Shown piece after piece: positions 4,812-64,000 of a DNA stretch of 64,000 nucleotides; within the stretch, counting starts at the first letter, position 1; each line of letters starts with the position of its first letter. The DNA is taken from assembly GCA_014729775.1 (NCBI GenBank), contig WJJJ01000007.1, positions 30,302 through 94,301 on the forward strand. The letters are read 5' to 3'. This DNA comes from Candidatus Omnitrophota bacterium. Lineage in GTDB: Bacteria > Omnitrophota > Gorgyraeia > Duberdicusellales > 4484-171. Under the pieces are notes generated by a model, which had not been told where the DNA came from, did not search any database, and saw only the letters and a list, made by a program, of their open reading frames with translations. Made by a program: the position numbers and the translations under genes.

Positions 4812-7647
<2,836 letters not shown>

Positions 7648-59276: not shown

Positions 59277-59797
59277 ATATGAGAGGACAGAGAGGAAAAT
59301 GGGTTATTCTGATCGCGGCCGCCGGAGTGCTCTGGGGGGTACCCCGGTGCGAGGCGGGACGTTCTCTGCGCAATGTATCCGCCGCTCCCGAGGAGTTTCA
59401 CCGCACTCAGGTGACGATTCAGGGAGAAGCGATCGGAGAACCGCTCAAAACAGTTGAAGGATTCTGGGTGAATCTGTCGTCCGAAGGAGCGCATCTCTCG
59501 GCGTGGGTCAAAGACCGGGAAGCCGTCGATAAAATTGTGCACTGGGGCCGGTATGGAATGCGGGGAGATAGGGTAGAGGTGACCGGGGTTTTTTATCGAA
59601 AATGCCCGGTACACCATACCAGCGGAATTCACGTCCAATCCTTGCGGGTGCGCGAGCGCGGGGGGCGCGTTTTTCATCCCGTGTCCGCGCGAAAAAAGAC
59701 GGGTACCCGCGCGGCGGCAATAATCTGTTTGACATTTTTTTTGATTTATCTTATAAAGGAAAGAAATCGCCGCCGGCAAGCGAAGGACATGTCATGA
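59273..59797 (+). CDS. Hypothetical exported protein with C-terminal membrane anchor (possible OB-fold/BOF-like)
   Basis: ATGA overlap with trkH. Signal peptide (WVILIAAAGVLWGVPRCEA), a ~110-aa beta-rich domain, and a C-terminal TM (AAAIICLTFFLIYLI). Confidence 0.5.
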   Translation: MNMRGQRGKWVILIAAAGVLWGVPRCEAGRSLRNVSAAPEEFHRTQVTIQGEAIGEPLKTVEGFWVNLSSEGAHLSAWVKDREAVDKIVHWGRYGMRGDRVEVTGVFYRKCPVHHTSGIHVQSLRVRERGGRVFHPVSARKKTGTRAAAIICLTFFLIYLIKERNRRRQAKDMS

Positions 59798-60834
59798 TCG
59801 CCCGGGAAGAAATCGCACAAATCGTTCAGGAATTTGAAACCGATCTTGCTCAGGCCGGGTCTGCTGAAGCCCTGGAGAAGATACGGATCAAGTATTTAGG
59901 ACGAAAATCCCGTCTTTCTCGGATGTTTGCGAAGATCCCTTCCTTGCCTCCCCGGGAAAAGGGGGTTTTGGGCAAGGAACTGAACGTGACCAAGCAGAAA
60001 ATCGCGGCAAAACTGGAAGAAAAGTCGCAGCAGAACGCGCAGGCGGAAGAAGGCATGGATCTTACCTTCCCCGGAGAAAAGATATCCCACGGCGGCAGGC
60101 ACTTGCTGAGCCGGGTGTTAGAGGATATTTGTACCACGTTTGAGAATTTGGGGTTCAGCGTCAAGGAAGGGGCGGAAATAGACGACGAGTGGCATAATTT
60201 CAGCGCGTTGAACATTCCGCTGGAACATCCTTCCAGAGACGTCTTTGACACGTTTTATCTGAATCTTCCCGCACAGGGAAAAGGGAAGCTGCTGCTGCGC
60301 AGCCACACGTCTCCTTCACAAATCCATTTTATGGAGGAGGCGTCCCCTCCTTTTGCGATCGTATCTCCGGGCAGAGTGTACCGGCCCGATCAAGTCGATG
60401 CGACCCACTCATTCATGTTTCATCAGGTGGAAGGCTTTGCCGTGAGCGAACATATCCGGTTTTCCGATCTGAAAGGAGTGCTTCTGCGATTTGCGAAAAC
60501 CTATTTCGGGCCCGGGGTGGAATTAAGGTTCAGGCCCCATTTTTTTCCGTTTACCGAGCCTTCGGCGGAGGTGGATATCTCGTGTTTCTCCTGTGCCGCT
60601 CGTGATTCGGATGAAAAATGCAGTATATGCAAGGGGTCCCGCTGGATTGAAATCCTCGGCTGCGGAATGATCCATCCCCACGTGCTGTCCGCGTGTAAAA
60701 TAGACCCGCAGCGATACCGCGGATTTGCTTTCGGCATGGGCGTGGAGCGGATCGCCATGCTTCGCTATCGGATTCCCGATATCCGTCTTTTTTACGAAAA
60801 TGATGTCCGTTTTTTGGAGCAGTTCCGTTCCTGA
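59794..60834 (+). CDS. pheS: Phenylalanine--tRNA ligase alpha subunit
   Basis: ATGA overlap with the upstream gene. Class II motifs are present (FRPHFFPFTEPSAEVD; GFAFGMGVERIAML). Confidence 0.9.
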   Translation: MIAREEIAQIVQEFETDLAQAGSAEALEKIRIKYLGRKSRLSRMFAKIPSLPPREKGVLGKELNVTKQKIAAKLEEKSQQNAQAEEGMDLTFPGEKISHGGRHLLSRVLEDICTTFENLGFSVKEGAEIDDEWHNFSALNIPLEHPSRDVFDTFYLNLPAQGKGKLLLRSHTSPSQIHFMEEASPPFAIVSPGRVYRPDQVDATHSFMFHQVEGFAVSEHIRFSDLKGVLLRFAKTYFGPGVELRFRPHFFPFTEPSAEVDISCFSCAARDSDEKCSICKGSRWIEILGCGMIHPHVLSACKIDPQRYRGFAFGMGVERIAMLRYRIPDIRLFYENDVRFLEQFRS

Positions 60835-60887: not shown

Positions 60888-62873
60888 ATGCGATTTAGTT
60901 TGAACTTTATTCGAGAAATGGTGCCGGTTTCTTGCGAGCCCCGGGAACTCGCCCGAAAGATTACCCTGCTCGGTTTGGAGGTGGAGAATCTGGAACCGGT
61001 GGGGGATGACTGGGTGTATGAGGTGGAGGTCACCTCAAACCGTTATGACTGGCTTTCTATGGTGGGATTATCACGGGAAGTCGCCGCGGCGCTGGGGACA
61101 CGGATCTCGCTTGAGTATCCCGAGATCCGTACCTCTCCGTCACTGGAAGGTTTTATCCTTCGGATTGATGCCCCCGACGATTGTCCCTGGTATCTGGGCC
61201 GACGGATCACGAACGTGCGGGTAAAGGAATCATCCGCCCGGCTGAAAGAACGGCTTCTGCATTCAGGTCTTCCGGCAGTCAATAACGTTGTGGACGCGAC
61301 GAATTACTGCATGTTGAAATGGGGGACGCCGCTCCATGCGTTCGACGCTGATAAAATACAGGGGAACGTGACGGTACGCTATGCCCGTGACCGGGAATCG
61401 TTCGTGGGGATTGACGGAAAAACAAGAACACTCTCGTCTCAGAACCTGGTGATTGCCGATGCGGAACGGGTAATCGCGCTCGCGGGCGTAATGGGAGCGC
61501 AGAATACGGAGGTGACCGGGGAGACCAAGAATGTATTTTTGGAAGCGGCCCTGTTCGCGCCGGTTCGTGTCCGCCGGTCCCGCCGGGCGGCCGGGATCGA
61601 GAGCGAGTCTTCATACCGGTTTGAACGTTCGGTGTTTCCCGATTATATCGAATACGCGTCGGAAGAGGCAGCGCGGATTATTGAACGGGATGCGCAGGGT
61701 GAATTTGCCGGCTGTGTCTGCGCGGGCCGCAAGCCCGAAGAAGGGAAAAAAGAAGTCATCCTTGCCGGAGAGGACCTTCGCCGGACTCTTGGCGTCCAGG
61801 TACCGGAAGAAGAGGTTGAAGGGATTCTTTCGTCGCTCGGATTTTCCTGCCGGCGCAATACCCCCGGTACGTTGACCGTAACTGTGCCGGCGTTTCGTCT
61901 CGACGTGGACAGGGAAGAGGATCTCTACGAGGAAATTATCCGGGTGTACGGGTATGAACGGATTCCCGCGACTCTTCCACCGATCCAGCCCGGGACGGGA
62001 AAAGAGTCCCTGTATTCATTTAAGCAAAAAATCCGTGTGATGTGTGCGCAGCTCGGATTTCAGGAAGTGGTGACCTACAGCATCGGTGAAGAAGATTCTC
62101 TGCGCGCGGTATGCGAACGGGATCCGGTGACGCTGGTGAATCCGTTGCGCGCCCAGGAAACCGCTTTGCGCACTACGTTGTTTCCCGCATTACTCCAGGT
62201 GCTGCGATATAACCGCAACCGTTCCCGGCCGGATCTCTCGATATTCGAACTCGCCGACCGTTACGGAGTGGAAAAAACGGGATTTTCCGAAATTCCGACG
62301 TTAGCGTTTCTCGTGAGCGGACAGCGTGAGGAGTTTTTTACGCTGAAAGGTGCGCTCCGGGAAATATGCGGGCGGTTGAATATCGCCGATGTTGAATTCC
62401 GGGAAATCACCCGTGCGCATTTTTCCAGTGCCCTGGAATTACGCGGGGGAGGTACTGTATTGGGATGGGCCGGGAAAGCGGGGAGAAAAGAGTGCGATGC
62501 ACAAGGAGTATCCGGACATGTGTTTTACGGCGAAGTTGATGTTGAGGCGCTTCAGGCCCGGCAACGTCCCCTGCGCTTTGTCCCCTTTAGTCAGTATCCG
62601 GCCGTGTCCCGGGATGTCAGTCTTATCATCCGTCCTCCGGCGAGATTTCAGCAGGTGCGCGTGCTGATCGAACGACGCGCGGGGTCCTATCTCGAAGGAC
62701 TTCTGGTCGTGGACCGTTACACAGGAAAAGAAATTCCGGCCGACGCCCAGGCGGTCACGGTCCGGATTTCTTATCAGTCACGCGAAAAAACCCTGACCTC
62801 CGAAGAAGTTGATGCTCTCCATACCGGCGTTCGAGAGGAACTGCAAAATCAAACCGGCATTCTTGTGCGGTAG
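60888..62873 (+). CDS. pheT: Phenylalanine--tRNA ligase beta subunit (short form lacking the B2 tRNA-binding domain)
   Basis: B1 (MRFSLNFIREMVP...ITLLGLEVENLEP) runs directly into B3/B4 (YEVEVTSNRYDWLSMVGLSREVA). B5, the catalytic-like core and the C-terminal anticodon-binding domain are present. 661 aa versus ~795 aa in E. coli. Confidence 0.9.
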   Translation: MRFSLNFIREMVPVSCEPRELARKITLLGLEVENLEPVGDDWVYEVEVTSNRYDWLSMVGLSREVAAALGTRISLEYPEIRTSPSLEGFILRIDAPDDCPWYLGRRITNVRVKESSARLKERLLHSGLPAVNNVVDATNYCMLKWGTPLHAFDADKIQGNVTVRYARDRESFVGIDGKTRTLSSQNLVIADAERVIALAGVMGAQNTEVTGETKNVFLEAALFAPVRVRRSRRAAGIESESSYRFERSVFPDYIEYASEEAARIIERDAQGEFAGCVCAGRKPEEGKKEVILAGEDLRRTLGVQVPEEEVEGILSSLGFSCRRNTPGTLTVTVPAFRLDVDREEDLYEEIIRVYGYERIPATLPPIQPGTGKESLYSFKQKIRVMCAQLGFQEVVTYSIGEEDSLRAVCERDPVTLVNPLRAQETALRTTLFPALLQVLRYNRNRSRPDLSIFELADRYGVEKTGFSEIPTLAFLVSGQREEFFTLKGALREICGRLNIADVEFREITRAHFSSALELRGGGTVLGWAGKAGRKECDAQGVSGHVFYGEVDVEALQARQRPLRFVPFSQYPAVSRDVSLIIRPPARFQQVRVLIERRAGSYLEGLLVVDRYTGKEIPADAQAVTVRISYQSREKTLTSEEVDALHTGVREELQNQTGILVR

Positions 62874-62881
62874 TACCCGCC

Positions 62882-62910
62882 TTGAAAATGCCCGGTGAGA
62901 ATGGTATAAT
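62882..62910 (+). promoter_or_regulatory. Near-consensus sigma70 promoter TTGAAA-17-TATAAT
   Basis: TTGAAA at 62882-62887, a 17-nt spacer, and TATAAT at 62905-62910, directly after the pheT stop. The predicted TSS is ~62917. Confidence 0.55.
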
Positions 62911-62916
62911 CGTAAC

Positions 62917-63082
62917 ACAAAAAACCCTGCTGGTCTCGTTGACAGGCATAAGTGCTACAGACAACACCTTTTCGAAGGGAGCCAAATCTTCCTTGTGCTT
63001 TGGCGGAAGGAACGCGGCGCCCACGTGTATGAGGAGAGGACTGATAGCAGCGGCCTGGGACGGACTCACAGCAGGGTTTTTT
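62917..63082 (+). ncRNA. Candidate ~165-nt structured small RNA (family unknown; end-to-end closing helix plus U-tract)
   Basis: Downstream of the consensus promoter, 5' CCCTGCTG (62925-62932) is the exact reverse complement of CAGCAGGG (63069-63076), which is followed at once by TTTTTT (63077-63082). There is no convincing ORF; a further 200 nt precede the rarA start. Confidence 0.4.
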
Positions 63083-63284
63083 ATTTCTTCCCTGTTCCCC
63101 CGTTTGCCGGAAGCGGTCCAAAGGGAATCCCTCTCTCATCACGGAGGGAGCGGAGAAAGGCTCTTCTTTTTCCCTCCAAGGAAAAAAGAGGGAGAAGCGA
63201 AGATTCGTTGCGCAGAGGTTTTGCAAAAGGTCCACACCCGGACTTCGGGGCCAGCACAGCCGTTTCTTTGCACGCATATAGGAA

Positions 63285-64000
63285 AAACAGATGAAAAAAG
63301 AGATTCCTTTAGCCGTACGCATGCGCCCCGTGACGCTGGATGAATTTATCGGCCAGGAACATATTCTGGGAAAAGAGCAGCTTCTGCGGCGGGCGATAGA
63401 GTCAAAAAAGATTCCGTCGGTGATCCTTTCCGGTCCACCCGGGTGCGGGAAGACGACCCTGGGAACGATCATTGCCCGGGAGCTCAGCGCGGCGTTCGTC
63501 CATTTGAACGCGGCGTTCAGTTCCGTGGCGGATCTGCGGAAGGTCGTCCGGGAGGCCCGCCGGAAAGAAGAAGAGCGGGGCGAAAAGACCGTGCTTTTCA
63601 TCGATGAGATTCATCGGTTCAATAAAACCCAGCAGGAGGCACTGATCCCCGATACCGAAAACGGCACGTTGGTGGTAGTGGGAGCGACAATTTATCAACC
63701 GACTTTTTATCTTATCCCTTCGCTGATTTCCCGTTCGATTGTCGCCGCGTTCCGGCCGTTGGGTTCGGCCGAGGTGGAGCAAATTCTGAAACGGGCCCTG
63801 CGCGACAGGGAACGCGGGGTGGGAAAGGAACCGGTCAATATTACCAATAAAGCGATTTCTTTTCTCGCCGAAGTATCCTCAGGGGACGCCCGCGCCGCGC
63901 TTACTGCGCTGGAAATCGGGGTGGCAAGTACTCCGCCGGGGAAAGACGGAAAGATTCTTTTCGATCTTAAGACGGCGCAGAACTGCATGCAGAAAAATGT
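63285..64000 (+). CDS. rarA: Replication-associated recombination protein A (AAA+ ATPase RarA/MgsA), 3' end outside the window
   Basis: VRMRPVTLDEFIGQEHILGKEQLLRRAIESKKIPSVILSGPPGCGKTTLGTIIA...VLFIDEIHRFNKTQQEALIP shows co-linear identity to the RarA N-terminus, with Walker A and B present. The reading frame runs open to the window edge. Confidence 0.85.

Follow-up and report, generated by a model that had tools for sequence, protein, structure and literature searches.

What does the non-coding gap between pheT and a rarA-type gene encode in a 64,000-nt stretch of DNA from Candidatus Omnitrophota bacterium (contig WJJJ01000007.1, positions 30,302 to 94,301 of the forward strand; hereafter the window)? 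An earlier sequence-only reading of the window had put the gap at about 410 nt and had seen in it a consensus promoter and a transcript with paired ends; we measured 417 nt, from the pheT stop at 62873 to the next ATG at 63291, confirmed pheT and found that the downstream gene matches models of RarA-type AAA+ ATPases. Our results indicate that the flagged stretch is very probably a 6S RNA (SsrS) gene, which adds a divergent member to a known family and does not define a new type of element. Few bacterial regulatory RNAs are better known than 6S RNA; it binds the primary-sigma RNA polymerase holoenzyme and holds housekeeping transcription down under nutrient limitation. The promoter and the gene lie as follows.

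62882–62910, + strand: sigma-70-type promoter, with the -35 element TTGAAA at 62882–62887, a 17-nt spacer and the extended -10 element TGgTATAAT at 62902–62910
62917–63082, + strand: probable 6S RNA (ssrS) gene of about 166 nt, with predicted start A62917 and an end inside the U-tract

A promoter scan over both strands of all 64 kb ranked this promoter first, with a score of 11/12 and, in addition, an extended -10 (TATAAT at 62905–62910, TG at 62902–62903). The scan bore out the claim that TTGAAA-17-TATAAT is the best promoter of the window and added the TG extension, which had gone unmentioned; the one other site scoring 11/12, at 59729, is without TG. The predicted transcription start, A62917, lies 7 nt past the -10 element and was placed near there because the modal distance from the end of the -10 to CCCUGC in homologs is 14 nt. 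The resulting 166-nt stretch agrees with the transcript of about 165 nt from about 62917 that had been proposed. Its ends were also as described, with CCCTGCTG (62925–62932) perfectly complementary over 8 bp to CAGCAGGG (63069–63076), which directly abuts TTTTTT at 63077–63082. Folding of 62917–63082 gave a closed rod of -71.9 kcal/mol, compared with -49.7 ± 3.9 kcal/mol for 200 dinucleotide shuffles, none of which was as stable (z = -5.68). A local terminator scan did not call the 3′ end of the RNA, because the closing stem joins distant strands and forms no local hairpin; its sole call was an unrelated weak site at 63146–63165.

To identify the RNA, we scanned 3 kb of the window (61000–64000) against all 4,227 Rfam families at a permissive E-value (E ≤ 10). 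RF00013 (6S/SsrS) matched 62921–63081 on the + strand with 38.5 bits (E = 1.3e-5 for the 3 kb searched; model positions 1–187) and was the only credible match among all families. The sequence-only reading, which had recommended such a scan, could not fit the RNA to 6S by eye; the Rfam model aligned to it from end to end, with the closing, internal, bubble-flanking and apical helices in register with the 6S consensus. The window RNA and RF00013 also share the motifs GGGAGCC...GGCnCCCAC and AGCCAA, with CCCAC placed on the CCCAC of the model. 6S had been one of four candidates named, along with signal recognition particle (SRP) RNA, RNase P RNA and transfer-messenger RNA (tmRNA). The other three were rejected, as none matched at E ≤ 10 in the 3 kb or at gathering thresholds across the window, and ARAGORN found no tmRNA. 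The only RNA at gathering thresholds across the window was a tRNA-Val.

Homologs and covarying structure

We collected 71 pheT loci (numbered with the prefix L) from species-representative genomes by PheT alignment, nearly all of them from Omnitrophota. The PheT of the window was 100% identical to a protein of a Candidatus Omnitrophica metagenome-assembled genome (MAG), with the next relatives at about 48%. Full-length matches to the RNA were present on the pheT strand in 46 of the 71 loci (nhmmer, E from 2e-24 to 3e-9), spanning lineages whose PheT is only about 45% identical, so that nucleotide conservation of the RNA is far above what the flanking proteins suggest. To this extent the expected conservation downstream of pheT held, although rarA proved the more faithful partner. 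A covariance model of the clade (R1) scored the window copy at 163.9 bits on the + strand and the reverse strand at 35 bits or less in relatives, a difference of about 130 bits. R1 added a divergent copy in L059; the copy in L052 is interrupted by the contig end.

Six of 24 relatives tested reached or exceeded the curated RF00013 gathering score of 46.4 bits (L065, 54.6; L004, 51.9; L025, 49.7; L018, 47.7; L002, 47.5; L005, 46.6), and because the window copy is unambiguously homologous to these members, we place it in the 6S family. Its homologs are 161–168 nt long, vary by single nucleotides and fall within the 6S size class of about 150–200 nt.

The homologs also have the marks of an independent gene. 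A promoter scoring at least 10/12 precedes 40 of 47 copies, with the TG extension in 43, a -35 of TTGAAA in 36 and a -10 of TATAAT in 30; at the other end, at least 6 T occur within 8 nt past the closing stem in 41 of the 47. No reading frame is conserved, with none open in more than 9 of 46 homologs and with indels that are not multiples of three. Conserved promoter and U-tract, absence of a conserved frame and the covariation described below together uphold the view that this is a discrete, stable non-coding RNA, neither an mRNA leader nor coding sequence.

We drew a 45-pair structure by hand from the alignment and tested it on a structure-blind MAFFT alignment of 46 sequences (A2). The elements, all on the + strand, are the following.

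62924–62931 (A-CCCUGCU) with 63070–63077, + strand: closing stem P1; A2 columns 8–15/165–172, 97.6% paired, 3 pairs changed on both sides
62933–62947 (GUC.CGUU..CAGGC) with 63053–63065, + strand: extension P2/P3; A2 columns 17–31/147–160, 12 pairs, 9 of them compensatory, 91.9% paired
62953–62962 (UGCUACAG.C) with 63039–63049, + strand: internal stem P4; A2 columns 38–47/131–142, 9 of 9 pairs compensatory, 92.7% paired
62963–62976 (AACACCUUUUCGAA, 14 nt), + strand: 5′ strand of the central bubble, unpaired; 12–15 nt in 48 homologs, mode 14
62977–62983 (GGGAGCC) with 63016–63022 (GGCGCCC), + strand: bubble-flanking helix P5; A2 columns 63–69/106–112, 97.5% paired, 4 of 6 pairs compensatory
62989–62998 with 63003–63012, + strand: apical stem-loop P6, loop UUUG at 62999–63002; 8 of 10 pairs compensatory and 77% paired on the MAFFT alignment
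63023–63038 (ACGUGUAUGAGGAGAG, 16 nt), + strand: 3′ strand of the central bubble, starting with the conserved CCCAC; 12–17 nt in 48 homologs, mode 16
63070–63082, + strand: 3′ strand of the closing stem (AGCAGGG, with U63077 pairing to A62924) and U-tract 63077–63082, the presumed termination site

On the MAFFT alignment, 90.7% of the cells of this structure were paired, against 35–49% when the 3′ partners were slid by 1–3 columns, and 33 of the 45 pairs showed double-sided changes (149 cells). No column shuffle of 500 matched the structure on any of five measures; the slid-partner control, which the structure also clearly exceeded, is the fairer of the two because shuffles ignore relatedness. 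The covariation check on homologous intergenic regions that the sequence-only reading had proposed thus supports the structure through compensatory changes. An alignment fitted to the model gave 93.7% paired cells and 35 double-changed pairs (197 cells), and raised P6 to 10 of 10 compensatory pairs and 86% paired, figures biased toward the structure by construction. G-U pairs are frequent (for example UG 28 against UA 18, and GC 25 against GU 16), which fixes the strand as +. The GGG/CCC pairs of P5 are almost invariant, and in the window copy P1 is lengthened by one pair, G62932–C63069. An RNAalifold fold of the MAFFT alignment was set aside; it contained only 26 pairs, including a probably spurious helix at 29–31/39–41.

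The layout of closing stem, central bulge and apical stem is the canonical 6S architecture, described as an outer closing stem that bears small bulges, followed by a large central bulge and by an apical stem ending in a terminal loop (PMC8414754). Two interior elements had been read differently from sequence. The GGCGGAAGGAACGCGGCGCC segment had been taken for a GGAA-loop hairpin but supplies the 3′ strand to both the apical stem and the bubble-flanking helix, the true apical loop being UUUG at 62999–63002; the AGCAGC element, likened to SRP domain IV, is the 3′ strand of the internal stem and falls in a region that no SRP model matches.

A few loci carried unusual versions of the RNA. In a fen MAG (L045, PMCS01000029.1), two tandem copies lie 5′ of rarA at 6326–6458 and 6833–6993, scoring 86.8 and 97.4 bits with R1; the first is 133 nt long with a reduced apical stem, and neither has a canonical TTGAAA/TATAAT promoter. 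In L027 (6001–6110), the promoter is kept with only the first ~50 nt of the RNA (as far as ...GCGCUACAGCCAACAUUAAUUU), and the start codon of a PAC2-like gene follows directly; either the 3′ two thirds of the RNA were genuinely deleted or the locus is misassembled. L026 has a second, weak nhmmer match at 6428–6473 (E = 0.019), which covers the 3′-terminal 46 nt of the RNA, lies about 180 nt past the full copy and may be a remnant of a duplication.

Predicted mode of action and family assignment

If the RNA acts as other 6S RNAs do, its rod would mimic an open promoter and fill the active-site cleft of the primary-sigma holoenzyme, and this sequestration would lower housekeeping transcription when nutrients are scarce. 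On nutrient upshift, polymerase would copy the 5′ strand of the bubble into a short product RNA (pRNA), whose synthesis would unzip the internal stem and free the enzyme. More tentatively, the long-range closing stem and the U-tract may end most transcripts; as this stem is long-range, termination would need the 5′ end to pair as the 3′ strand emerges. Equally tentatively, read-through could supply the downstream rarA, as in E. coli ssrS–ygfA. The promoter points indirectly to an abundant RNA, being the best sigma-70-type match of the window, and by analogy with 6S the RNA may accumulate in stationary phase.

The predicted pRNA start lies opposite C62965, which the conserved A62966 follows on the 3′ side, and the 5′ strand of P4 supplies most of the predicted template. 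For the window copy the predicted pRNA is 5′-GUUGUCUGUAGCAC, opening 5′-GUUGUCUGUAG..., and for the clade consensus 5′-GUUGGCUGUAGCGC. The start column is C or U in 43 of 48 homologs and the next column A in 43 of 48, and two templating columns, C in 38 and 46 of the 48, would place GG at positions 4/5 of the consensus pRNA of the clade. A conserved A beside the pRNA start and GG at positions 4/5 is the template rule in E. coli, A. aeolicus and R. sphaeroides, and the Lactobacillales have GG at 5/6 (PMC8414754). The clade of the window RNA follows this rule as a pattern in its sequences, for a pRNA that is itself predicted.

Several points weigh against assigning the RNA to the 6S family. At 38.5 bits the window copy lies below the RF00013 gathering score, is not reported at that threshold and would therefore escape standard annotation; of the 24 relatives tested, 18 likewise stay under it, at 36–38 bits or lower, and because the copy and most relatives are sub-threshold, membership is argued partly by transitive homology. 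The shape itself, a rod with a central bubble, is simple, and the shuffle control of the covariation ignores phylogeny. The predicted pRNA of the window copy has GU, not GG, at positions 4/5. When the template strand was blocked and the alignment refolded, no conserved release hairpin appeared, and a single-sequence refold with the same block gave a 3-bp helix only. The search for 6S covered 64 kb of the genome, within which R1 found no second copy; a better second candidate may exist elsewhere. Finally, we infer polymerase binding, pRNA synthesis and expression in Omnitrophota from the biology of the 6S family. As to the scores, the clade straddles the RF00013 threshold, and we read a sub-threshold score as limited sensitivity of the model, not as failure of a biological criterion.

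Another explanation is that of a stable small RNA specific to the clade with the shape of 6S and a different partner, either the polymerase core, as for Ms1, or an unrelated protein. Most copies, including that of the window, score below the 6S threshold, and the partner of the window RNA would be assigned by analogy with 6S. Ms1, at about 300 nt roughly twice as long as the window RNA, is not known outside Actinobacteria. Ms1 is a rod-like, polymerase-binding RNA of 6S-related shape, an instance of such RNAs beyond 6S itself, and it differs in binding the polymerase core and not the holoenzyme (PMC9130861). We nevertheless consider a mere resemblance to 6S very improbable, as it would have to account for a match over the full RF00013 model with helices in register and with both shared motifs, for six homologs of 24 above the threshold and no other matching Rfam family, and for a length and a pRNA-template signature that fit 6S.

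Taken as a 6S RNA, the window RNA can be set beside the E. coli prototype, which is about 184 nt long and so of similar size class to its 166 nt. In both, a closing stem, an internal stem, a large central bubble and an apical stem succeed one another in matching register, with a GGG/CCC helix distal to the bubble and a 3′ bubble strand opening with CCCAC; they also share an AGCCAA-type template segment, GG at pRNA positions 4/5 (as predicted for the clade consensus), and possibly a dual-function unit with a downstream protein gene. They differ in that the window copy and about three quarters of its clade fall below the curated threshold, in an extra covarying CAGG/CCUG helix (P3) in Omnitrophota where the Rfam consensus has an internal loop, in a 3′ end at which the closing stem runs straight into a conserved U-tract, and in the neighbours, pheT and rarA here as opposed to zapA and ygfA in E. 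coli. The extra P3 helix, the U-tract directly after the closing stem and the linkage to rarA are modest clade-specific traits, and our understanding of 6S RNA is unchanged by these results.

They are of use for annotation, as an "empty" 417-nt gap in the genome of an uncultured phylum gains a gene and a likely function. About three quarters of the clade (18 of the 24 relatives tested) escape the curated Rfam model, and the 48 aligned Omnitrophota sequences, with their covariation-supported structure, could extend the RF00013 seed to mend these misses; some homologs are already detectable by Rfam-based pipelines. A literature search found no paper pairing 6S RNA with Omnitrophica or Omnitrophota, the 6S survey of Wehner et al. 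2014 lying outside that search.

The conserved TTGAAA-17-TGnTATAAT further indicates the form of a strong housekeeping promoter in Omnitrophota. The second-best sigma-70-type promoter of the window, at 59729–59757 (TTGACA-17-TATAAA, 11/12, without TG), lies just 5′ of where pheS probably begins (MIAREEIAQ..., near 59794); as listed, the 410-aa pheS open reading frame (ORF; 59602–60834) probably extends too far at its 5′ end.

Neighbouring genes

Downstream of the RNA, the window holds part of one further gene.

63291–64000, + strand: 5′ part of a rarA-type AAA+ ATPase gene, matching PRK13341-series models (NCBIfam, E = 1e-76)

The match is partial because the window ends. A rarA homolog lies 3′ of the RNA on the same strand in 32 of the 46 loci, at distances of 13–636 nt, and among the loci examined none had rarA without the RNA. 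In L021 and L032 the RNA is 1.4–2.7 kb from pheT yet 41–54 nt upstream of rarA. A gene of the PAC2/proteasome-assembly-chaperone family (TIGR00162, E = 6e-23; about 320–335 aa) takes the place of rarA in 13 of the 46 loci (for example L007:6272–7258, L011, L013, L015, L019, L020, L023, L025, L030, L033, L035 and L037), often only 2–40 nt past the U-tract.

Could the RNA then be a cis-acting 5′ leader or attenuator of rarA, its terminal helix and U-tract forming a conditional terminator? Its position directly 5′ of rarA on the same strand, sometimes only 13–27 nt from the start codon, its staying with rarA away from pheT in L021 and L032, and its ending in a U-tract all speak for such a role. 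Yet where a PAC2-family gene replaces rarA, the RNA, its promoter and its U-tract are unaltered; the terminating helix is made of the two ends of the RNA, with no local expression-platform hairpin and anti-terminator; and the curated 6S threshold is passed by six homologs. It would also be unusual for a low-abundance repair gene to have a near-consensus extended -10 promoter, and in the window 208 nt of non-conserved spacer lie between the RNA and rarA. A 6S RNA may in any case be co-transcribed with a downstream gene, since E. coli ssrS–ygfA is a 6S gene co-transcribed in this way. We therefore regard a leader function as very improbable, marginally more so than a mere resemblance to 6S.

That there is no RNA gene, and that the region is a chance intergenic fold or part of one of the three mechanical ORFs listed below, is already refuted: homologs have stops in every frame and non-triplet indels, so these ORFs are not genes, and nucleotide conservation across lineages with about 45% PheT identity, compensatory changes in 33 of 45 pairs and the fold z-score of -5.68 leave chance with practically no weight. 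With no frame conserved, the region does not read as a coding gene in relatives, an outcome that the sequence-only reading had said would count against it.

62882–63343, + strand: mechanical ORF of 153 aa spanning the RNA
62849–63601, - strand: mechanical ORF of 250 aa spanning the RNA
62755–63069, - strand: mechanical ORF of 104 aa spanning the RNA

With 6S thus retained as the reading of the RNA, its association with rarA bears comparison with Firmicutes. In Lactobacillales and B. subtilis (6S-1), the 6S gene also adjoins rarA, in other orientations (PMC8414754): it lies downstream of rarA in Lactobacillales, and rarA is on the opposite strand in B. subtilis, whereas in Omnitrophota the RNA precedes rarA on the same strand, sometimes by only 13–27 nt. 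Firmicutes 6S RNAs (Lactobacillales; B. subtilis 6S-1/BsrA) resemble it further in closing stem, 5′ central bulge and apical stem, and in having a TATAAT promoter of their own and a 3′-terminal terminator. They differ in that no hairpin opposite the 5′ bulge is evident in the Omnitrophota RNA, and the Lactobacillales in placing the pRNA GG at positions 5/6 against the predicted 4/5. The tandem pair in L045 is reminiscent of the Bacillus 6S-1/6S-2 paralogy.

Read-through co-transcription of rarA is plausible in some genomes, because gaps of 13–27 nt leave no room for a separate promoter, and it may also occur in the window. We think it unlikely, though a good deal less so than either of the alternatives above, that the RNA and rarA form a conserved dual-function unit, ancient or functionally driven, in which release from 6S at outgrowth is coupled to RarA-assisted replication restart; if so, a 6S–rarA neighbourhood in a phylum very distant from Firmicutes would be more than a coincidence of gene order. 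The recurrent adjacency in two distant phyla is, as it stands, a small testable curiosity.

The spacer between the RNA and rarA in the window (63083–63290, 208 nt) is GC-rich and strongly folded, with an energy of -73.9 kcal/mol. None of the 71 related loci has a detectable homolog of this spacer, which is thus not part of the element. Within it are purine/pyrimidine runs, CTCTTCTTTTTCCCTCC and GGAAAAAAGAGGGAGAAG.

Other pheT loci differed in what follows pheT. In a separate Omnitrophota clade (L056, L057, L060, L061 and L071), a TTGACA-17-TATAAT promoter and a tRNA stand in place of 6S, less than about 250 nt past pheT; L071 shows first a partial tRNA 5′ end (GACCCCATCGTCT), next a GC-rich, apparently structured insert of about 190 nt, and last a complete tRNA. 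Short direct-repeat arrays occupy the first ~200 nt past pheT in L006, L009, L016 and L039, with repeats of ATCTGCG type in the last three and of CATTACAC type in L006. Those of L006, L009 and L016 lie upstream of a conserved gene starting M(V/L)ELKSKSLKNIE, and those of L039 upstream of a different gene (MKYERKDKYTKP...); such repeats could be arrays of binding sites.

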